NCBI GenBank assembly: GCA_963840975.1
Contig: CAWJBC010000021.1
Location: 259,837 to 323,836 of the forward strand
Reading direction: 5' to 3'
DNA length: 64,000 bases
DNA from: an uncultured Bacteroidales bacterium
Lineage (GTDB): Bacteria; Bacteroidota; Bacteroidia; Bacteroidales; JAADJA01
The position numbers and the translations under genes are program-made. Positions within the stretch are counted from its first letter, which is position 1, and the number at the start of each line of letters is the position of its first letter. The notes beneath the pieces are model-generated. The model was not told where the DNA came from and did not search any database. It saw only the letters and a program-made list of their open reading frames with translations. Below, in pieces: positions 3,064 to 35,903 of the stretch.

Positions 3064-4227
3064 TTAGTTTGCATCCATCAGTCCTTCCACCAGCCAGTTA
3101 GCAACTGCCTGCCGGTTATCAACTACAATAAAACGCTTTTGGTCGGCGTCATTCCGGATATTGCCCAATTCAATGAATACTGAGGTTGGCGTTACTTTGC
3201 GAAGCATGTGCAGGTTTCTTGGTTTTACCGTACCATAATAGCCCCTGTTTTTCTGGTGGTGATTGTATTTTTCCTCTATTTTATCTTTCAATAAATAGGC
3301 TACTTCCTTTCCTTTCGCGTCATTTGGGTAATAGTAGAAAAACATGTCAACGCGCTGACCACTGCTTCGCGAATCAACATGGAGGTTAATGGCTAATTGC
3401 TTCTTTATTCCATTTTTTTTATTTTCTGCATAAAGGTCATTAACAATTTTACATCCAAGATCCAATCGGGCTATCTGGTTCAGCGGCATGGTCTTGTTTT
3501 TATAATAGACTTCGTCCTTATCAGGTTCAAGTATCGCTTTATCACGTATGCCGTCATTCTTATCGCGTGTGATTAAATAAACGGTGGCGCTGTGTTCGAG
3601 CAGGTTTTTTGTCATTCTCAATGCGATATCATAAGCATATTCATCTTCACAAAGGGTGTGTCCGTTGTATTTTCCCATCGCTCCGGGATCAGGACCTCCA
3701 TGACCCGAGATGATATAGTAAACATTCCCTTCCAGTTTTTTATCCTGTATTTGAACGTTTTTATATTTTTCACCCAGCAAGGAATACTCAACGGTAGCAG
3801 GTCCCGATGATTTTGTGCCGGAATCGCAATAAAGGTAGTCATAAGGAACCCAAAGAATATTATCAGCCCTGTAATCCTTTTCTTTGATACCCTTGCTGAC
3901 CATGGCTTCATTGTAGTTTTGTATCTTTTTGGCAAGGTTGTAATCGTTGTTGCCAATGGTAGTGCGGATATTTACGGTGTTGTAGGTATAAACCACTACC
4001 GGAAGCTTATAAATCCGGTCAATCCTCAGCGACAAATCGTCGGGAAGTTTATTGATTTCTTTGAAATGTTCGAGGTTGCATTTGGAAGATGAGATATCAT
4101 ACTTTTTAAAAAGTAAATAAGTCGCATCACCTGATTTTGCCCTGAATTCAACATACTGTAAATCTTCCCCGATAAGAGTTACCGATGCGAACAGAAAAAT
4201 AAATAATATTTTAAATCTTAACGTCAT
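3064..4227 (-). CDS. N-acetylmuramoyl-L-alanine amidase (Amidase_3 family) with N-terminal LysM-like region
   Basis: Motifs GHGGPDPGA, NLHVDS and FIELGNIRN are present. A signal-like start MTLRFKILFIFLFASV sits at the internal ATG 4227. Confidence 0.8.
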   Translation of the reverse strand: MTLRFKILFIFLFASVTLIGEDLQYVEFRAKSGDATYLLFKKYDISSSKCNLEHFKEINKLPDDLSLRIDRIYKLPVVVYTYNTVNIRTTIGNNDYNLAKKIQNYNEAMVSKGIKEKDYRADNILWVPYDYLYCDSGTKSSGPATVEYSLLGEKYKNVQIQDKKLEGNVYYIISGHGGPDPGAMGKYNGHTLCEDEYAYDIALRMTKNLLEHSATVYLITRDKNDGIRDKAILEPDKDEVYYKNKTMPLNQIARLDLGCKIVNDLYAENKKNGIKKQLAINLHVDSRSSGQRVDMFFYYYPNDAKGKEVAYLLKDKIEEKYNHHQKNRGYYGTVKPRNLHMLRKVTPTSVFIELGNIRNDADQKRFIVVDNRQAVANWLVEGLMDAN

Positions 4228-4423: not shown

Positions 4424-5464
4424 TCAAAACTGAAAGGTTTCTGTTTTCTTTTGACCGATTATTTCTATTGCTTTTTCCATAATGTCATCAACGCCATCCA
4501 GTTCGTGCAGCGGATCCATCCAGACTGTAACATCCGGCGGAACTCCGTTTTCCCAGTTCTGACCATCGGGGGTGAGTGTGCGGGAAACTGAAAATCGGTA
4601 AGCCCAACCATTGGGCAGCTCAAACCCGGCTGGCGAACCGAGACCACCGCCGGTTGTGTCGCCTACCTGAACTACATGAGGAAAAGCTTTCATGGCGGTA
4701 GCGAAGAATGAAGTAGCGCTGAAACATCCCCTGTTCGTAAGCAGGATCACCGGTTTTGTGTAATGGTATGAACCAACAGGTTTCATTGTAACTTCTGCCG
4801 CATCACCAAAATCATCATGGCCGGGACCTGTCTTCATTGCAGAGGTAAATATTACCCTTTCCTGATCGGCAAACCGTGAACCGATTTGATAAATGTTTGT
4901 TACGCTTCCACCTCCATTGTTGCGCATGTCTAAAATAATCCCGTTGGTGTGCCACAGGCTACCAATCACAAAATCAATATCAGCACTTTGGACAGGTTGT
5001 GAAAAACTGCCGTAATAAATGTATCCGATCGAAAGGCTGTCTCTTTCAAAAGTTGTATTGATAAGCGAACCGGTTATTCTGTAATCCCAGCCGATGTAAT
5101 GATCCTTTATCAGCCTGAAATCGAAATTCTCAGGAGCATTGTATTTAAATGAATACCTCGAAATATCAAATGGGGCGGTGAGGTTCACATGACCATCATT
5201 CAGCTCATTCAGCATGTCGGCAAGGACATCGAATAACTCATAATTGCTCATGTCGTTGTTCACCTGCGGGCGATAAGTATTGTAAACTTCATTCCAGTCA
5301 ATGCCCTTGTATTCAAAAAAGGAATACTTTTCATCAGCGGATTTCCAGATGTATTCAAAATTCGTCACAGGGTCGTTTGCCGGTTCATCTTCCATGAGGA
5401 TTTTTTCACAAGACGCATTAACTATCGCCAATAGAATTAAATTCAAATAAAACTTATTCAGCAA
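4424..5464 (-). CDS. S41 family (C-terminal processing/tail-specific type) peptidase, probable lipoprotein
   Basis: Motifs DMRNNGGGS and NRGCFSATSFFA...GDTTGGG are present. The TTG at 5464 gives MLNKFYLNLILLAIVNASC, a lipobox-like leader. The longer ORF to 5665 only translates a palindromic repeat. The start is uncertain; ATG 5542 is also possible. Confidence 0.75.
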   Translation of the reverse strand: MLNKFYLNLILLAIVNASCEKILMEDEPANDPVTNFEYIWKSADEKYSFFEYKGIDWNEVYNTYRPQVNNDMSNYELFDVLADMLNELNDGHVNLTAPFDISRYSFKYNAPENFDFRLIKDHYIGWDYRITGSLINTTFERDSLSIGYIYYGSFSQPVQSADIDFVIGSLWHTNGIILDMRNNGGGSVTNIYQIGSRFADQERVIFTSAMKTGPGHDDFGDAAEVTMKPVGSYHYTKPVILLTNRGCFSATSFFATAMKAFPHVVQVGDTTGGGLGSPAGFELPNGWAYRFSVSRTLTPDGQNWENGVPPDVTVWMDPLHELDGVDDIMEKAIEIIGQKKTETFQF

Positions 5465-25089: not shown

Positions 25090-27381
25090 TTACTCCACAT
25101 TTATTTGAACAATAAACCGCGGACGGTCAATTGTATATCCTGCATTTCCTCCTTTGGCATTGGTCAAATCGGCAGGCGACCCAAAACTAATCCGTTCAGG
25201 TGCGATTTGTTTTTCTACCTGAAAATAATTCCTGACGTTTTCCTGCCTCATTTCTATAAGCGCTAACACAGCTTCTCTTGCCTTTGATTCACCTATCATA
25301 TAACCGCATTTTTTTTGCACCGGCATATTTTTGTTCTCAAATTGCATGGTCTGGTCAATCCAGTTGATGAAAAGAGAGTCTTTTATGGAAATAGCGTTAA
25401 TTTCATCTAAGGTTTCCTTGTCGAAAACTATCTTTTCAATTTCTGTTTTTCTTATGTTACGTGCATAATAAACCTTTCGCGCTTCAATGGTAGTATAAAA
25501 ATCAATCTCCTTCAGTGTGTCAACCAATTGGATGAATTCAAAATTAAGTTCCTCCTTTTGTTTCAGCACCTGTGATAAAGGTTCGAGTGATTTGATCTGC
25601 ATTTTGGTGATATCTGTTTCCAGGTAATTAAACTGTACCTCTTTCATTTCTTCTTCGGATGATCCAAAAGCGCTGGCTAACAATCGGAACGGAGCGGTGG
25701 CGACTTTCACAACCAGGTTTTTCAGTATGCCCCAAATCACCTTACCCATCCTGAACTCAGGATCATTGAGATTGCCTTCAACCGGGATTTCGAGGTTTAT
25801 ATTTCCATGCACATCCTTTAATATTGCAACAGCAAGTTTTACAGGAACGTCAAGAGCCGTCATACTTCTGGTTTTCGGTCCGAATTTAAACCCGATAATG
25901 TTAATCTTATTAGTGCTTGTGAGGTTTCCATCCTGAATGGTGGTCCGGCTCGAATAATTTAAAATCGCTTTGTTGATGGGATACGAAATATAATAAACTG
26001 AATAAGGTGTTAAGTCAGCAAGGCTGGTTTCATAAAAATCATAATTGACAACCATGTTGTTGAAATTCTGTGGATCAACCATAATCCGTGCGGTTCCTTT
26101 GCTTTTACCGTTGAGTAATACACTCATATCAAACCGGACGGTGTCGGCATGTGAGTTGATATGTTTGGAGCGGATTTTCAAATCGGTTATGGTGTAACTG
26201 AATGTTTCGTGGAGGGTGTAATCGTTGTATTGCAACATGCCTCGATTTACATTGAGGCTGTCGAACTGATAATCAGTAGCAACATAAGTCCGGGCAATGT
26301 CGCGGATGTAATAAGCCATTAATGAAAACACATTGTAGGAGTTAAATTCTTCACTAACCGCGCCGGAAGCCGCTGTCATTGAGTCTGCTCCGCTGTCAGG
26401 AACCAACCGCGACCAGTTATCACCTTCATCATACATTTCAACAAGGACAAAAGGATCGTTGATGTTGATGGATTTGAGTCGGTAGAGGTCGTTTTTAATA
26501 TTGATGGAATCAATTCCGATAGCGAGGTTTTTAAGGGTGAAAATAGTTTGATTGTTATCATCGGCGAGGGCAAAGTTATCAATATCGAATTGCCCTTTCA
26601 CAGCCAGGTCGGTTGTTTCATTCAGGTTGATGAAAAGATCAAGATGATTGGTGAGTTCGCCTTCAAGGGAGGTTATGCTCATAAATTCTTTCAGTGGAAT
26701 GGTCAGGGGTTGAAGGTTGATCTGGTTCATTTCGATAGAGGTGTGCAATTCATTTCTTTTCAGATCGAGCAGGAGTGCAATGATGGCATCTCCGCCTGTT
26801 TTTAGTCCAAACCGTACATCCGAAAACAGGGTATCGTTGTTCCAGGCTAATCCTGGGCTTGATACTTCCAGGTTATTGATTTCCAGGGTGGAGCCTATCA
26901 TTTGGTCAGAATACAAAACAGCGCCCTCATTAATTTTGATATTGCTGATTGACCACATTACTGGTTCGGAGCCTGCGGTATCCACCACTTCAGTTTTTGT
27001 TGAATCGGAGCCGAGATTCATCAGGTCATCAAAATTAAATCTGCCGTCAAAAAGAATGATGTTAGCATAAGGGCGGCTCAATTCAGCAGTTTTGATGGTA
27101 TATTTTGACCGGAATAAGTCCCATATACTGATCCTGGTATAAAAACTTTCAAACCCGACAAACAAGGTGCTGCCATCCTTTTCATAAAGATTAAAATCCC
27201 TGATTGTAATCCCTCCATTGAATGAATTGATCTTGATTTTTCCAATTGTTAACTGTCGTCCAATTAATTTTTCGTCATTGGCTTCAATATATTTTTTTAG
27301 AATGGTTGGCAGTGATAAAAAGAATGTGATGATAAGAAGCGTCATTACTATTGCTGCACCAAGTCTGATTTTTTTAACCAT
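25090..27381 (-). CDS. DUF748/AsmA-like large envelope protein
   Basis: N-terminal anchor followed by IGKIKINSFNGGITIRDFNLYEKDG-type repeats, as I recall for DUF748 proteins. Confidence 0.6.
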   Translation of the reverse strand: MVKKIRLGAAIVMTLLIITFFLSLPTILKKYIEANDEKLIGRQLTIGKIKINSFNGGITIRDFNLYEKDGSTLFVGFESFYTRISIWDLFRSKYTIKTAELSRPYANIILFDGRFNFDDLMNLGSDSTKTEVVDTAGSEPVMWSISNIKINEGAVLYSDQMIGSTLEINNLEVSSPGLAWNNDTLFSDVRFGLKTGGDAIIALLLDLKRNELHTSIEMNQINLQPLTIPLKEFMSITSLEGELTNHLDLFINLNETTDLAVKGQFDIDNFALADDNNQTIFTLKNLAIGIDSINIKNDLYRLKSININDPFVLVEMYDEGDNWSRLVPDSGADSMTAASGAVSEEFNSYNVFSLMAYYIRDIARTYVATDYQFDSLNVNRGMLQYNDYTLHETFSYTITDLKIRSKHINSHADTVRFDMSVLLNGKSKGTARIMVDPQNFNNMVVNYDFYETSLADLTPYSVYYISYPINKAILNYSSRTTIQDGNLTSTNKINIIGFKFGPKTRSMTALDVPVKLAVAILKDVHGNINLEIPVEGNLNDPEFRMGKVIWGILKNLVVKVATAPFRLLASAFGSSEEEMKEVQFNYLETDITKMQIKSLEPLSQVLKQKEELNFEFIQLVDTLKEIDFYTTIEARKVYYARNIRKTEIEKIVFDKETLDEINAISIKDSLFINWIDQTMQFENKNMPVQKKCGYMIGESKAREAVLALIEMRQENVRNYFQVEKQIAPERISFGSPADLTNAKGGNAGYTIDRPRFIVQINVE

Positions 27382-30680: not shown

Positions 30681-30801
30681 TTCCGTCATGCTTTTAGGTT
30701 GACTTGTTATCAGTCACCCAAATAAAATAATACAATACATTATTGGTGACTAATCAGTTTGCTGACAATCTTATATTTACTGAATTAAGAATCTTTTAAC
30801 T

Positions 30802-30935
30802 GGTATAGAGGAAATAAAGGTATAAAGGGAATAAGTGTTATGGTTAAAGCAATCTGGTTGGGAAGTATAAATTTTAAATATAAAACTTAAACCCTGTATT
30901 TCCTCTATTCCATTATACCCTTTATACCCCTTTCC
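30802..30935. repeat. Inverted copies of short modules (atagaggaaata and ggtataaaggg)
   Basis: Left copy: 30805-30816 and 30819-30829. Complementary modules tatttcctctat at 30897-30908 and ccctttatacc at 30918-30928. The module order is crossed, not nested. Confidence 0.5.
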
Positions 30936-31069
30936 GTTACTGCGCCAGGTGTAATTACATTGTAAATAGTATACTGATTACTTACCATTATTGCATCAGC
31001 ATTGTTATGCGGCAATGAAGTGTATTGTTTTTCGTTATTGTTTCTCACATCGAAACGTAGCAAGATTTT

Positions 31070-31981
31070 ATGAAGAATTTTAAACAAGCCTTATTTGTTC
31101 TGGCTGCCGGAATCTTTTCACTGCCTTCTTTTTCGCAGGGATGCAGCGATGCTGGCGTTTGTTCTACCGGCAATCTTAATTTTGGTTTTTTCGATAAAAA
31201 GCCCAAATCGAGCCTGGTTGCAAATAATATTTTCGGATTGGGAGAACAAAATACTTTTAATTACACTCTCCAGCTCGAATACAATTATCAAACCGGAAAA
31301 CAGTCTTCTTTACAGTTTAAAGTTCCTTATAGCGCTGTGTTTGGGAATCTGACCAACATCTCCGGATTGGGTGATTTCACGGTAAGTTACAGTCAGAATT
31401 TGCTTCATAATGATTCATCATCACTGGATTTAACACTGGGTGGAAAGATCCCTTCCAACAATTCCGACTTTGATTATCAAAGCCAGCCGTTGCCTATGGC
31501 ATACCAAACTAGCCTGGGAACTTATGATATGATACTGGGATTATCCTATTCGTTCCGCAATTGGTTTTTTGCAACCGGCTATCAGCATCCGTTCAACAGG
31601 AATGACAATGCCTTTTTACATACTGAATGGAGCGGGAATGAAAATGCACAAGCGTACAATGAATCGAACCGGTTGAAGCGGGGCGATGATGCAATGGTGA
31701 GGGTGAACTATGTTTTTGAATTTAAGAAATGGAGCCTAAATGCAGGTTTCCTTCCGATTTATCACCTGCAAAAGGATGAAATTGAAAAAGATGGAGAAAA
31801 CATCAAGGTTGACGGTTCCAGCGGGTTTACTTACAATATAAATTTATCAACGAGCCACAAGGATAAAAAAGGCAATATGTTCAGGTATTCATTGGGTGTG
31901 CCGCTTCATGCCCGCGAGGTCAGAACGGATGGCACCACAAGGACTTTTGTAATTGCTGCAGATTTTACCTTTTATTTTTAA
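31070..31981 (+). CDS. Putative outer-membrane beta-barrel protein, function unknown
   Basis: Signal peptide MKNFKQALFVLAAGIFSLPSFSQ. Beta-strand periodicity. C-terminal FVIAADFTFYF. Confidence 0.4.
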   Translation: MKNFKQALFVLAAGIFSLPSFSQGCSDAGVCSTGNLNFGFFDKKPKSSLVANNIFGLGEQNTFNYTLQLEYNYQTGKQSSLQFKVPYSAVFGNLTNISGLGDFTVSYSQNLLHNDSSSLDLTLGGKIPSNNSDFDYQSQPLPMAYQTSLGTYDMILGLSYSFRNWFFATGYQHPFNRNDNAFLHTEWSGNENAQAYNESNRLKRGDDAMVRVNYVFEFKKWSLNAGFLPIYHLQKDEIEKDGENIKVDGSSGFTYNINLSTSHKDKKGNMFRYSLGVPLHAREVRTDGTTRTFVIAADFTFYF

Positions 31982-32145
31982 CAGGTTTAAGTTTCGGATG
32001 AACCACCCGTCTTAAGGATTAATTATAAACGAGAATCAGGAGTTAACTGACTTATGCCACGAAGCCTCTAAGTAAAGATTCCAAAATAACTTTCCTAATT
32101 CAATAGTTGAATATAGCGTATCTTCTTGCCATCAGGATAATTGCT

Positions 32146-32288
32146 ATTTCGTCCCTGACGAGACATATTCAAATTTTTATATTCCATTCTACCAATATGT
32201 TATCCCTGACGGGATAGTCCGCCAGTGAGCGGACGGAATTTTGGTAGAAAAGTTTGCGACAGGTAATCAAGTCCTGTAGTGACGAAAT
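32146..32288. repeat. Dense nested hairpin/short-repeat cluster (candidate structured RNA or REP-like cluster)
   Basis: Outer 8-bp pairing atttcgtc (32146-53) / gacgaaat (32281-88). Inner 8-bp pairing tctaccaa (32188-95) / ttggtaga (32241-48) encloses two perfect hairpins: tatccc-tgac-gggata (32201-16) and gtccgc-cagtga-gcggac (32217-34). A further hairpin acagg...cctgt lies at 32259-77. Confidence 0.5.
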
Positions 32289-32378
32289 TATTAACACAGA
32301 TTCATTTATTGCTCTAAATTTTTTTCCAATGATTTTAATTAGAGTCTGTCTGTAAAGTCATTATTTCCAGCAGATTTC

Positions 32379-32425
32379 GCAGATGAACGCAGAATTTTTA
32401 TCAGCGAAAATCAGCGTTATCTGCG
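32379..32425. repeat. Imperfect palindrome
   Basis: cgcagatgaacgc ... gcgttatctgcg flank 22 nt. Confidence 0.5.
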
Positions 32426-32603
32426 GGAGAATTCTTTTTGAGATAGATATTATTGACAGGCACTAATCAGAAATGCAAAATATCTGATAGAGTTTCGGGG
32501 AAGTTATTTTGGGTCAGGTCTTTTTTGGTGAATGAAGAATCAGATGGAAATAAAATTGCCCGATGAAGATATGATCTGATTGAAATGATTTACTTTTGAA
32601 AAT

Positions 32604-32684
32604 ATAACCTGAATCTTATCATGGTTATCCAATTACATGTAAGAAGATACCCCTGATAGATTCAGGGATATAAGCGAGTTAGCC
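32604..32684 (+). other. Imperfect palindrome ending in GTTAGCC just upstream of the nuclease ORF (weak attC/attI-like candidate)
   Basis: Stem ctgaatct(t)atca(t)gg at 32609-24 pairs with ccctgatagattcag at 32651-65, with bulged T residues. TAAC (32605-08) and GTTA (32678-81) could pair at the base, but the spacer is 0 by 12 nt. Confidence 0.25.
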
Positions 32685-32709
32685 ATTATTGCAAAAAGAC
32701 CACACAACT

Positions 32710-33666
32710 ATGAATAGTAGACAAAAAGCAAAAGAATGGATTTATCCACGACATACTGAATTTGAATTAGAATTAAGAAACTCATCATCTGAATGGTTTA
32801 TTAAAAATAAATTCCAAGTTCATAGCAAAATGCCATATTGTTTAGACTCTTTAGACAACTGGCGAAAAAATATTATTTTATCGGAAGTTGCTGATTATAT
32901 TGAGAATTTCAAAAATGAGAGTGAAAAGAATAATAAACCATTTCCACTTCACAAGTACGTACATCACGGATTAAGTAGTCAAGCGATGGTCTTTAATTTA
33001 ATTGGACCTTTAATTACTAGAAACGATTTGAATCCATTGACTGCATTACTTGAAGCAAAAGGAATTGTTGACAAATTTGAAAGAGCACAATTTGAATATG
33101 AAGACAGGTCTGTTTTTAATGAAGATACTGGGCAACCAACTTCAATTGACTTAGTTCTTTTTGACACAGATAATAGACCAAGGATTTTTATTGAAAGCAA
33201 ATTAGTCGAAGCTGAATTTGGAGGTTGTTCTGTTTTTACAAAAGGAGATTGCGCTGGAGGAAATCCTATTGATAATTTACAAGAATGTTTTTTACATTTT
33301 ATCGGTAGAAAATATTGGAGTTTAATTGAAAAATACGGCTTCAATGAGAAAATAAAAAATGAAAAGATTTGTATTTTAGTAAATTATTATCAGTTCTTCA
33401 GAGAGATTTTATTGAGTATTGATAAAGACGGTTATTTTGTTCTACTTTCAGACGAACGTAGTCCAGTTTTTAATTATCAAAATGGAGGAAAAGTTCGTGG
33501 AATAATTCCATTATTAACGGAATTCGTTCCCGACAAATACAAGGACAGAATAGTTTTAGTTACTATACAAGAGATTGTTCATTCAATTGAAAGTACCGGT
33601 AGACACAATGATTGGATAAATGAATTTGAATTAAAATATGGATTAAAAAAAGCAACAAATGGCTAA
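32710..33666 (+). CDS. PD-(D/E)XK-type nuclease-like protein (restriction-endonuclease fold), orphan
   Basis: Core SIDLVLFDTDNRPRIFIESKLVEAEFGGC fits D...(D/E)xK. An upstream motif HHGLSSQAMVFNLIGPL is present. No methyltransferase gene is adjacent. The TAA stop lies inside the first bases of the downstream palindrome. Confidence 0.5.
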   Translation: MNSRQKAKEWIYPRHTEFELELRNSSSEWFIKNKFQVHSKMPYCLDSLDNWRKNIILSEVADYIENFKNESEKNNKPFPLHKYVHHGLSSQAMVFNLIGPLITRNDLNPLTALLEAKGIVDKFERAQFEYEDRSVFNEDTGQPTSIDLVLFDTDNRPRIFIESKLVEAEFGGCSVFTKGDCAGGNPIDNLQECFLHFIGRKYWSLIEKYGFNEKIKNEKICILVNYYQFFREILLSIDKDGYFVLLSDERSPVFNYQNGGKVRGIIPLLTEFVPDKYKDRIVLVTIQEIVHSIESTGRHNDWINEFELKYGLKKATNG

Positions 33667-33791
33667 CAAGCGGTATAAAACATTGGGGTTTAGGTAGTTA
33701 TTCAAACATTCTACCACGCATTAAGTTCGGTGTAACTGGACAGGATAGTAGCCCGCAATCCCCAACGATTTCATACCACTGACCGTTAAAT
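33662..33791 (+). other. attC-like imperfect palindrome (candidate cassette recombination site)
   Basis: TAAC (33664-67) pairs with GTTA (33785-88), and the 3' end reads GTTAAAT (GTTRRRY). Internal loop is 4 by 7 nt. Then a 17-position stem (33672-88 with 33760-77) has 15 pairs, 2 mismatches and 1 bulged A. About 71 nt form the terminal part. Confidence 0.35.
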
Positions 33792-33801
33792 AAAAGATAA
33801 A

Positions 33802-33990
33802 ATGACAATAACGAAAAAGTTATATTTGACAATAACGCTAATCATTTTGATTCATTCTCCTGAACTTTGTGCTCAAATAAAGCTGTCTGATACCTTAATT
33901 TATGAATATCAAGGTAAGCGATTTTCGACTTTTTTTGAACTTTATCCAGATTCAACATATTACTATTTTACGAGTTGGCATTCATTGTGA
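33802..33990 (+). CDS. Short ORF with signal-peptide-like start, possibly a gene remnant
   Basis: MTITKKLYLTITLIILIHSPELCAQ..., only 62 aa. No family recognised. Confidence 0.25.
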   Translation: MTITKKLYLTITLIILIHSPELCAQIKLSDTLIYEYQGKRFSTFFELYPDSTYYYFTSWHSL

Positions 33991-34064
33991 AAATCCGGGT
34001 ACAAAAAATAATACAGACTAAAAAAGATTGACTAATTTCGAAATGGACTTTTTAAAATGAAAAA

Positions 34065-34913
34065 ATGACCAAAGAAAATGCAATAAAATTATTTCAAGAC
34101 CAACGTGTTCGGGTTCATTGGGACGATGAAAATGAAAAATGGTATTTCTCCATTATTGATGTCATTGGGGTTTTGACCGAGAGTGAAAACCCTCGAAAAT
34201 ATTGGAGTGTTCTGAAAACCAGACTTAAAAAAGAAGGAAGTGAAGTGGCTACAAATTGTAGCCGTTTGAAATTATTGGCAGTTGATGGCAAAATGAGACT
34301 AACTGATGTCGCAGACACAGAACAATTATTACGATTTATACAATCAATTCCTTCACCAAAAGCAGAACCATTTAAAGTTTGGTTAGCGAAAGTAGGTTAT
34401 GAGCGAATTGAAGAAACCGAAGACCCGGAACTTGCATTTGACCGTGCAATGGAAACATATCTAAAGAAAGGATATTCAAATAACTGGATTAACCAACGGC
34501 TAAAAAGTATTGAAGTCCGAAAAGAACTAACTGATGAATGGGAATTGCGTGGTGTAGAGAAAGGATTGGAATACGCAATTCTTACAAATGAAATTACGAA
34601 AGCATGGTCAGGATTTAACATCAAAGAATACAAAAAATTCAAGAAACTAAAAAAAGAAAACCTGAGAGATAACATGACCAATTTAGAATTGGTTCTTAAT
34701 ATGTTAGCAGAGGCAACAACTAAAGAGATTTCAAAAGAAAAGAAACCTAAAACATTTACAGAAAGCAAAATAATTGCAAAACAAGGAGGAACAATTGCAG
34801 GAAACACCAGAAAAGAAATTGAAGAGAAAACTGGCAAAAAAGTAACTTCACCAAAGAATGCAATAGAATTAGGAAAACGAGATAACGATGAAATAAAAAG
34901 CATTGGAGAATAA
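34065..34913 (+). CDS. Bro-N domain protein with DinD-like C-terminal region (phage/mobile-element associated family)
   Basis: N-terminus FQDQRVRVHWDDENEKWYFSIIDVIGVLTES.NPRKYW...LK and middle SPKAEPFKVWLAKVGYERIEE match my memory of Bro-N/DNA-damage-inducible protein D sequences. Confidence 0.65.
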   Translation: MTKENAIKLFQDQRVRVHWDDENEKWYFSIIDVIGVLTESENPRKYWSVLKTRLKKEGSEVATNCSRLKLLAVDGKMRLTDVADTEQLLRFIQSIPSPKAEPFKVWLAKVGYERIEETEDPELAFDRAMETYLKKGYSNNWINQRLKSIEVRKELTDEWELRGVEKGLEYAILTNEITKAWSGFNIKEYKKFKKLKKENLRDNMTNLELVLNMLAEATTKEISKEKKPKTFTESKIIAKQGGTIAGNTRKEIEEKTGKKVTSPKNAIELGKRDNDEIKSIGE

Positions 34914-34934
34914 ACAATCCCGAACATTATGGAA

Positions 34935-35056
34935 CAACAAAGGCTCATAAGCAATACTGTCATAAGTGGAATTAATGGAAAACAAAAAACATAAAGGTAA
35001 GCTACGAAAAGAATGGTATTAAATCCAGTACTGCTCTTAGCCTGGAAACGTTGACA
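34935..35056 (+). other. attC-like imperfect palindrome (candidate cassette recombination site)
   Basis: CAAC (34935-38) pairs with GTTG (35050-53). Internal loop is 3 by 7 nt. A stem of about 14 bp with bulges follows: ggct/agcc, aag/ctt, caatactg/cagtactg. About 66 nt form the terminal part. A second GTTAAAA at 35060-66 lies 8 nt before the next ATG. Confidence 0.3.
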
Positions 35057-35073
35057 GAAGTTAAAAAAATGCA

Positions 35074-35784
35074 ATGAAAAAAGGAGATAGTGTTAAGGTT
35101 AAGAAAGGCGTTATGTCGCCGGATTATGATGATTTAAAAATTGAAGGTTGGCAAGGACGAATAAAAGAACTTGATTATGATACCGTAATGATAGAATTGG
35201 ACAGTATAACATTAGATTGTTTAAACAAGGATTATATCATTGATAGTATAGTTGAGGGGACTGATTATTCTTGTATAAATTTAGATATAGATGATGTAGA
35301 ACCGGCAAAATCAAGAGATACTCAAAATGACACATTGTTAAAACAAAATGAGATAAATGCAAAATATTCTCAAGACGAGGAAGAAAAACGGATTTCAAGT
35401 ATATTAAATTCTGAAGACTCTTCGGTAAATGAAGATAATAAGAGAATTTACTTTGAATATCTGAGTAAGAGTATTCAAAAGCCTTGTATTATGACAGGCA
35501 TGGAAGACTTTGATTGGGAGGAACCATATTTATTGGGTGGTTGAAGTCAAAAAGAATATGAAAAATTAAAATTGACCAAACCTTCTTATACTGATCAATT
35601 TGAATTGATTGGTTTTGTTGATGAGATTGATGATTGGAAAAGTATTCTTGTAAAAGTCAAGAGATTGTCTGATAATAAAAAGTTTGATTTGCCATTGTGG
35701 GATTTAGTAGCAATAGATGATAAATCGCCTAATTATTTATTGATCTCTGATTATTCATCCTGGATGACAAACTATCAATATTAA
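35074..35784 (+). pseudogene. Acidic protein of unknown function interrupted by an in-frame TGA at 35542-35544
   Basis: ORFs 35074-35544 and 35572-35784 are in the same frame. Reading through gives ...DFDWEEPYLLGG*SQKEYEKLKLTKPSYTDQFELIGF..., which looks like one continuous protein. Confidence 0.45.
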
Positions 35785-35903
35785 TCAAATTCTGCCAATT
35801 AGTAAGGCTCTGTGTGGTTGGGGCACGAGACCTAAGCAATGAAGCCTTCACAGCCGCAAGTTTGTAACTTGTGGCAAAAGAATCTCCAGCCTTTAATTTT
35901 ATT

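Follow-up and report, generated by a model that had tools for sequence, protein, structure and literature searches.

A likely decayed cassette mini-array of an integron-like gene-capture system in an uncultured Bacteroidales genome

We analysed a 64-kb stretch of contig C21 (CAWJBC010000021.1) from the genome of an uncultured Bacteroidales bacterium (the whole stretch is called the window) and conclude that its segment at 32.5–35.8 kb is, in all likelihood, a decayed mini-array of three gene cassettes that lacks a recombinase gene and belongs to an integron-like gene-capture system of the Bacteroidales. The region from 32.0 to 35.9 kb is AT-rich and contains four co-directional open reading frames (ORFs); GC content is 31.7% at 32679–35798 versus 39.4% genome-wide, in agreement with the low GC described in an earlier note on this DNA. 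From left to right, the cluster would comprise an attI-like junction, cassette 1, cassette 2 and a cassette 3 without a closing hairpin. Throughout, G000 denotes the genome that contains the window, other G numbers comparison genomes, L numbers loci and C numbers contigs.

Two attC-like sites in the window

Sites were scored with R1, a covariance model built in this analysis and distinct from the canonical IntegronFinder/HattCI attC covariance model. R1 was made from the aligned bottom strands of 21 array sites, drawn from G000's own array and from relatives and including neither of the two window families, with a structure obtained from RNAalifold. An unfiltered R1 search of the whole window returned two strong, full-length matches:

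attC-like site 1, 33661..33791, minus strand (bottom, the putative folding strand): R''=GGCTAAC, R'=GTTAAAT; R1 score 60.4 bits, E = 1.5e-12
attC-like site 2, 34932..35056, minus strand (bottom, the putative folding strand): R''=GAACAAC, R'=GTTGACA; R1 score 61.2 bits, E = 9.6e-13

The third-best match reached 17 bits (E = 0.06) within a miniature inverted-repeat transposable element (MITE), and the rest of the window scored lower still. The earlier note had placed two sites with (T/C)AAC...GTT(A/G) ends here, 1.1 kb apart, and both were recovered on re-reading the sequence, with AAC at 33665–33667 and GTT at 33785–33787 in site 1 and AAC at 34936–34938 and GTT at 35050–35052 in site 2. Judged by their end-to-end match to R1, a structure-plus-sequence model used here in place of the canonical attC model, sites 1 and 2 are real members of one site family.

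The stop codon of the restriction-endonuclease-like (REase-like) nuclease ORF falls within the start of site 1 (TAA at 33664–33666, inside TAAC), as previously described. The dimensions given for the sites required revision. The asymmetric spacer measures 1–2 nt by 4–5 nt (3–4 by 7 nt had been claimed) and the stem 18–20 bp (14–17 bp had been claimed), around a loop of ~60 nt; the next ORF begins 14 nt after GTT at one site, inside the proposed 10–17 nt, and 21 nt after it at the other. Site 2 and some other families have a single bulged base, a C on the 5' arm of the top strand.

Homologues of both sites (115–128 nt, 75–92% identity) occur in many genomes of the genus with unrelated flanks, and each window site is single-copy in its own genome by DNA search. 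The aligned copies in other genomes of the genus, 7 for site 1 and 18 for site 2, are bounded by AAC and GTT and contain compensatory changes in the stem, in four pairs for site 2. Relatives do vary at these boundaries, a point on which the earlier proposal had depended: different genes flank homologous sites, with breakpoints exactly at AAC and G|TT. Partners for R'' of site 2, and for R'' of the hairpin at 32604–32684 (site 3 of the earlier note), were sought elsewhere in the window and none was found.

A structured site family in the genome and the order

The structure of the site family is under selection. The family stem has 18 pairs, 16 of which show double compensatory changes in the 21-site alignment; paired cells amount to 92.5%, versus 60.7% in column shuffles and 32–50% with slid partners, and the covariation score is 0.746 versus 0.201. 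The bottom strand is the more stable one in 29 of 48 sites (p = 0.008), and two positions are conserved G.T wobbles on that strand, that is, A.C mismatches on the coding strand.

These wobbles lie antisense to the genes, and the corresponding A.C mismatches would be carried by a sense transcript, which argues against the idea that the elements work at the RNA level, as terminators, stabilisers or small RNAs transcribed at gene 3' ends. That idea fits the position of the sites directly after stop codons and their long stem. Against it, an Rfam scan of 30–38 kb gave no match (the canonical attC model is not part of Rfam), a consensus terminator scan made no call, no T-run is present at the sites, and the sharp AAC/GTT boundaries and complementary ends would be left unexplained. 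We consider it extremely unlikely.

Beyond the two window sites, R1 identified 46 further sites in G000, the genome in which the earlier note had suggested looking for more. About 28 of the 48 form an array on contig C11 (396.6–424.0 kb) that is headed by a recombinase gene, and the others include small clusters on C2, C8 and C12 and ten singletons. Within the C11 array, hairpins of 116–126 nt stand between short ORFs. A crude scanner for AAC...GTT duplexes also pointed to arrays, although it was too unspecific below about -20 kcal/mol. In a sample of 151 Bacteroidales genomes, about one per genus, R1 sites were present in 102 at E <= 1e-5.

Cassette ends were compared by counting the positions, out of 10, at which the sequence after the GTT of one site and that before the AAC of another form inverted complements. 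Adjacent sites in the C11 array reached a mean of 7.4/10, versus 3.0/10 for non-adjacent pairs, which is the arrangement expected if each cassette is able to circularise via a G|TT crossover.

Inverted complementarity between the sequence after GTT and that before the next AAC would not be predicted if the hairpins were repetitive extragenic palindromic (REP) or MITE-like repeats, spread by transposition or slippage and delimiting no cassettes. The genome is indeed MITE-rich, with two families right beside the cluster, and the sites are imperfect palindromes that occur at many places in it. Such repeats would, however, give no reason for arrays to extend always from a recombinase gene and in its direction, nor for a stem to be held by covariation amid sequence divergence, and we regard this reading as very improbable.

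Three cassettes and their cargo

The sites and the complementary ends divide the cluster into three putative cassettes, followed by a hairpin of another kind:

Cassette 1, 32679..33785, plus strand: orphan PD-(D/E)XK nuclease of the REase-ARP family (ORF 32710–33666) and attC-like site 1
Cassette 2, 33786..35050, plus strand: 62-aa ORF (33802–33990), Bro-N protein (34065–34913) and attC-like site 2
Cassette 3, 35051..35799, plus strand: gene of a CcbP-like acidic protein (35074–35784), then an R'' remnant at 35787–35799 (AAATTCTGCCAAT)
Perfect 10-bp hairpin, 35853..35875, no strand assigned: GCCGCAAGTT-TGT-AACTTGTGGC, between cassette 3 and the convergent DUF2834 gene

Cassette 1 is defined by the complementarity of its ends, its 5' end GTTAGCCATT (32678–32687) being the exact reverse complement of AATGGCTAAC (33658–33667). 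Cassette 3 starts with TTGACAGAAGTT and finishes with AAATTCTGCCAAT. In both, the ends are complementary at 8/10 positions outside the core (chance P(>=8) about 9e-4 each). The borders of cassette 3 are also visible by homology: its DNA similarity to L075, from another Bacteroidales metagenome-assembled genome (MAG), covers exactly 35051–35798, starting with the TT that follows G35050 and ending with the AAC/AAT of R''.

The cargo proteins were assigned with Pfam for the nuclease (PF22558, E = 2e-51) and the Bro-N domain (E = 5.6e-9). The Bro-N gene is multi-copy in G000 and in relatives; a scan of four relatives' loci (L010, L011, L013, L014) gave no R1 site. The CcbP-like protein has 194 homologues at E <= 0.001, the full-length ones mostly about 235 aa long. 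Its gene in the window reads as two in-frame ORFs (35074–35544 and 35572–35784), separated by a TGA at 35542–35544 where W157 is invariant in five aligned homologues; this TGG-to-TGA change has two possible sources, a nonsense mutation and a sequencing error.

A short attC after cassette 3 (35789–35866) was considered and rejected, because its fold was not significant and R1 was silent; R'' alone survives. For the hairpin at 35853–35875, an ordinary terminator-like stem is more probable than a recombination site; the consensus terminator scan made no call there. In L075, the cassette-3 homologue lies between two copies (3690–3830 and 4975–5120) of a different intergenic repeat of ~150 nt (CGAACAGACTTTTCCGCCAGTAAA...GGAAAGGATTCGACAAGGGCAAAAA), which may be another class of inter-cassette element.

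An attI-like junction at the left end

Upstream of cassette 1 we distinguished three features:

attI-like docking site, 32604..32687, plus strand: hairpin at 32606–32664 and junction GATATAAGCGA|GTTAGCCATT, with the putative crossover at G32678/T32679
Possible remnant of a recombinase 3' end, 32544..32579, plus strand: 11 codons, MEIKLPDEDMI*
MITE, 32068..32511, plus strand: 15-nt terminal inverted repeats CCAAAATAACTTTCC / GGGAAGTTATTTTGG, about 10 genomic copies

The earlier note had listed a third, weaker attC-like site at 32604–32684. The hairpin is real and, unlike those of sites 1 and 2, significant by itself (z = -3.7/-4.3), and it marks a true cassette boundary. Its identity as an attC was rejected, R1 giving no match and the 3' spacer being 11 nt long, and we re-read it as an attI-like junction. 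The window junction GATATAAGCGA|GTT matches the junctions just downstream of the recombinase gene in relatives, TATAAACGA|GTT in L069 and L051 and GATATAACGA|GTT in L068. At the docking junctions of relatives, the sequence after GTT complements R'' of the first cassette.

The docking motif also occurs with cassettes at several places that have no recombinase, namely on C21, C15 and C6. The C15 (25798–26617) and C6 (59438–60860) loci of G000 each combine a TATAAACGA|GTT motif, at 25798 and 60843 respectively, with one cassette and one attC-like site, and at C15 all 10 nt are complementary to the attC of that locus. Such loci would have arisen in one of two ways: the enzyme may act in trans and place cassettes at look-alike sites, or whole platforms may be duplicated and subsequently lose the recombinase.

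The 11-codon stub lies about 98 nt before the attI-like GTT, a spacing as in relatives, and resembles the C-termini of array-head recombinases (KIKSPIDDIEI* in G013, NIKSPFDDL* in G015). The stretch from ~32540 to ~32700 has a homologue at G015:C1 with 84% identity over the aligned part. A tblastn search with lax E-values upstream of site 3 found no recombinase remnant beyond these 11 codons. The stub hints, tentatively, at a deleted recombinase gene; alternatively, the junction may be a look-alike docking site used in trans.

The MITE at 32068–32511 occupies the place where a recombinase gene would be expected. It had been considered as an ORF-less cassette, a candidate rejected on account of its terminal inverted repeats and dispersed copies. 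Nested within it is a second small repeat (32344–32463, CAGCAGATTTCGCAGATGAACGCAGAA...) that is absent from the other copies and present in many relatives. Copies of the same MITE type recur on contig C12 (G000:C12:34788–36578, equal to L070 8788–10578) in three tandem 745-bp units, each with a 77-aa ORF, and these units adjoin three attC-like sites on that contig. A MITE-like repeat of ~250 nt also lies just past the ccsA-type gene (30737–30990), with some 40 BLAST pieces in the genome at 72–97% identity; a 141-nt AAC...GTT palindrome inside it (30798–30938) scored only 17 bits on R1.

A Xer-like recombinase heads the arrays

The recombinase gene at the head of the C11 array (G000:C11:424410–425783) encodes 445 aa, including about 170 extra N-terminal residues, and the array follows it on the same strand. 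The same arrangement, with the recombinase directly upstream of the array and co-oriented with it, is found in G013:C17, G015:C4 and G023:C11. In the arrays of relatives, hairpins alternate with short co-directional ORFs downstream of the tyrosine recombinase gene. On G008:C87, to judge from the coordinates, a site-1-type copy lies about 5 kb downstream of the recombinase and shares its strand; in three other Bacteroidales families the coordinates likewise place the recombinase just upstream of R1 sites, again with one strand in common. Homologues of the C11 recombinase on Mb-size contigs are 44–46% identical to it. Across the order-wide sample, 36 of the 151 genomes encode the recombinase N-terminal domain, and R1 sites occur in 33 of these versus 69 of the other 115 (Fisher p = 2e-4).

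The sequence of L053 (G008:C87:55001–75000) reads as a mirror image on either side of about 10 kb, its ORFs recurring in inverted order. Probably, either the assembly is at fault here or a large inverted duplication has taken in a recombinase and an attC-like site.

The array-head enzymes differ from IntI. With the TIGR02249 profile at its cut-off of 265 bits, no IntI was found in G000, whose best score was 97 bits, and contig C21 has no Xer- or IntI-like match at E <= 1e-3. The array-head recombinases of relatives score 135–214 bits on TIGR02249, in two stretches, and are gapped in the alignment where true IntI has its insertion; for the full-length enzymes of L069 and L068, the TIGR02249 score is about equal to that of the archaeal XerA model. 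The C11 recombinase gives an unbroken alignment with archaeal XerA (4a8e), and VchIntIA (2a3v) can be aligned to it only in pieces. True IntI, with 380–381 bits on TIGR02249 and the ALER..KYP insertion, is encoded in two genomes of the genus (G006:C40, L067 10489–11463; G024:C820:264–1208). The 20 kb around the G006 gene contain no R1 site, and this IntI may represent an In0 or belong to a different site family. The earlier proposal of an integron-type system is supported, with the qualification that this is no canonical IntI integron: IntI is missing and the array-head recombinase is Xer/XerA-like without the IntI insertion.

These results bear on a more conventional explanation, in which the cluster would be a classical CALIN, a cluster of attC sites lacking an integrase, with true attC sites served by a canonical IntI that other strains carry or that this lineage once carried, and with the Xer-like recombinase incidental. 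The bona fide IntI in two genomes of the genus would fit this, as would the AAC/GTT cores, the G|TT crossover and the bulged base, all common to attC sites. It is countered by the lack of IntI in G000, by the absence of family sites around the G006 IntI, by a spacer of 1–2 by 4–5 nt that appears to differ from canonical attC geometry, and by the Xer-like recombinase that heads arrays on the same strand in at least five genomes of the genus and in other families. We think this explanation unlikely to be correct.

Variability and decay of the cluster

The flanking ccsA-type and DUF2834 genes are adjacent in G014 and G015, which lack the whole 30.7–35.9 kb stretch, so that the entire stretch is accessory. 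In G004 these two flanks are separated by about 100 bp, but there the match on the right begins no earlier than about 36.36 kb. The variable island also contains a 303-aa ORF (31070–31981) with a signal-peptide-like start and no Pfam match; relatives do not have it at this position, and no family sites flank it.

Several observations weigh against a cassette array. Single-sequence DNA folding of the two sites does not exceed shuffles (z = 0.02/-1.9 for site 1 and 0.1/-0.7 for site 2); being non-significant on either strand, it was dropped as a test and is not counted as disproof of the sites. R-box pairing in the array context is only 4 bp, and the recombinase remnant, at just 11 codons, could be a coincidence. 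The ends of cassette 2 are non-complementary (2/10). Downstream of cassette 3 a significant hairpin is absent and only the R'' remnant at 35787–35799 is present, the earlier note having likewise seen no convincing site after the last ORF. Genes of the Bro-N and CcbP-like types are also found in other places that have no such sites, and some of the cargo may thus have come by other routes.

The 62-aa ORF at the start of cassette 2 looks like an N-terminal gene fragment, and because of this apparent fragment and the mismatched ends, cassette 2 is probably a fusion of two cassettes. To judge from the missing recombinase, the mismatched ends of cassette 2, and the TGA in cassette 3 with the loss of the hairpin after its R'', the cluster is decaying.

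Proposed mechanism

We propose that the sites fold as single-stranded hairpins, preferably from the bottom strand, and that a tyrosine recombinase cuts them at G|TT. Such cutting of folded sites would allow each cassette to excise in circular form and to insert again, either at the docking junction or at a different hairpin. The likely enzyme is the Xer/XerA-like recombinase encoded on C11, with its private N-terminal domain, which could act on the window locus in trans. The window cluster itself may have originated as an array whose recombinase gene was deleted.

Relation to known systems

CALINs are attC clusters that have no integrase (Cury et al. 2016; IntegronFinder 2.0, bioRxiv 10.1101/2022.02.28.482270), and integrons were reported to be nearly absent from Bacteroidetes (IntegronFinder 2.0, bioRxiv 10.1101/2022.02.28.482270). 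IntI is defined by its additional domain. The window cluster resembles integrons and CALINs in its co-directional ORFs, which show no obvious promoters and have behind each of them an imperfect palindrome with AAC...GTT cores, in structure that is kept more than sequence, in the G|TT crossover, in cassette ends that would rebuild the site once a cassette is circular, and in the bottom-strand bias; like a CALIN, it has two sites 1.1 kb apart and no integrase nearby. Unlike in integrons, the associated recombinase lacks the IntI-specific insertion, scores under the IntI cut-off, has an extra N-terminal domain and lies on the same strand as the cassettes. The sites are also uniformly ~125 nt long, and their 1–2 by 4–5-nt spacer appears to differ from the canonical attC geometry.

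The chromosomal integron of Vibrio cholerae is a large sedentary array with duplicated cassettes, uniform VCR-type attC sites of ~125 nt and cargo mostly of unknown function. Its integrase, VchIntIA, carries the I2 insertion that contacts extrahelical bases, and the integrase gene is oriented divergently from the cassettes. The Bacteroidales system is similar in its long uniform sites of ~125 nt, its large sedentary array, again with cassette duplicates, and its cargo mostly without known function (the C11 array encodes mostly unannotated proteins, besides two DUF3885 proteins and TPR, SPFH and DUF218 proteins). It differs in lacking an I2-type insertion and in having the recombinase co-oriented with the cassettes.

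Cassettes can also insert outside integrons, at genomic attG sites (bioRxiv 10.1101/2022.09.11.507474). This offers a comparable route for cassettes away from a main array, and it fits both the window cluster and the C15 and C6 loci with one cassette each. Unlike attG insertion, the loci described here share a specific attI-like motif, TATAA[A/G]CGA|GTT, and the enzyme is not IntI.

Together with integrons and CALINs, the nearest published counterparts are the rAID-1 arrays, in which a XerD-family tyrosine recombinase is followed by co-directional short low-GC genes with 'Repetitive intergenic sequences reminiscent of integrons', and which are present in more than half of Bacteroidales genomes (bioRxiv 10.1101/471110; PMC12247911). 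The criteria of Ross et al. 2019 (bioRxiv 10.1101/471110) are a XerD-like recombinase on the 5' side that is >= 44% identical to BF9343_RS08045, at least two co-directional downstream genes, GC <= 41%, repetitive intergenic sequences and orphan immunity cargo. The window comes from the same bacterial order and has four co-directional ORFs at 31.7% GC and two sites of one structural family; it differs from rAID-1 in having no recombinase gene, just the possible 11-codon stub. Among its cargo (REase-ARP, Bro-N, CcbP-like), no Pfam family was recognised as type VI secretion system (T6SS) immunity, dedicated immunity profiles not having been run.

In the rAID papers searched we found sequence motifs only; folding into hairpins, crossover at G|TT and ends able to circularise go unmentioned there. 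The mechanism of rAID gene acquisition and biogenesis was called open in a 2025 preprint (PMC12247911). The literature searched contained no paper on the hairpin, on a crossover at G|TT or on the docking motif.

Significance

The locus itself, decayed and without a recombinase, is an ordinary, modest example of a kind already known, the integron-like or rAID-type arrays. For the system behind it, we lean towards the view that the Bacteroidales, and probably the wider Bacteroidota, have their own counterpart of the integron, with a Xer/XerA-like recombinase that lacks I2 and has its own N-terminal domain, bottom-strand hairpins of ~125 nt recombined at G|TT, and entry at TATAA(A/G)CGA|GTT, of which rAID-1 would be the gut branch. 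Together with the intact C11 array, the locus provides testable parts: a hairpin family, a G|TT crossover, a docking motif and a candidate enzyme. If the enzyme works without the IntI-specific domain, that domain would not be strictly required for the recombination of folded hairpins. In that case, integron finders that demand the IntI domain would miss a gene-capture system with R1 sites in about two thirds of the sampled Bacteroidales genera. The system behind this locus deserves experimental work.

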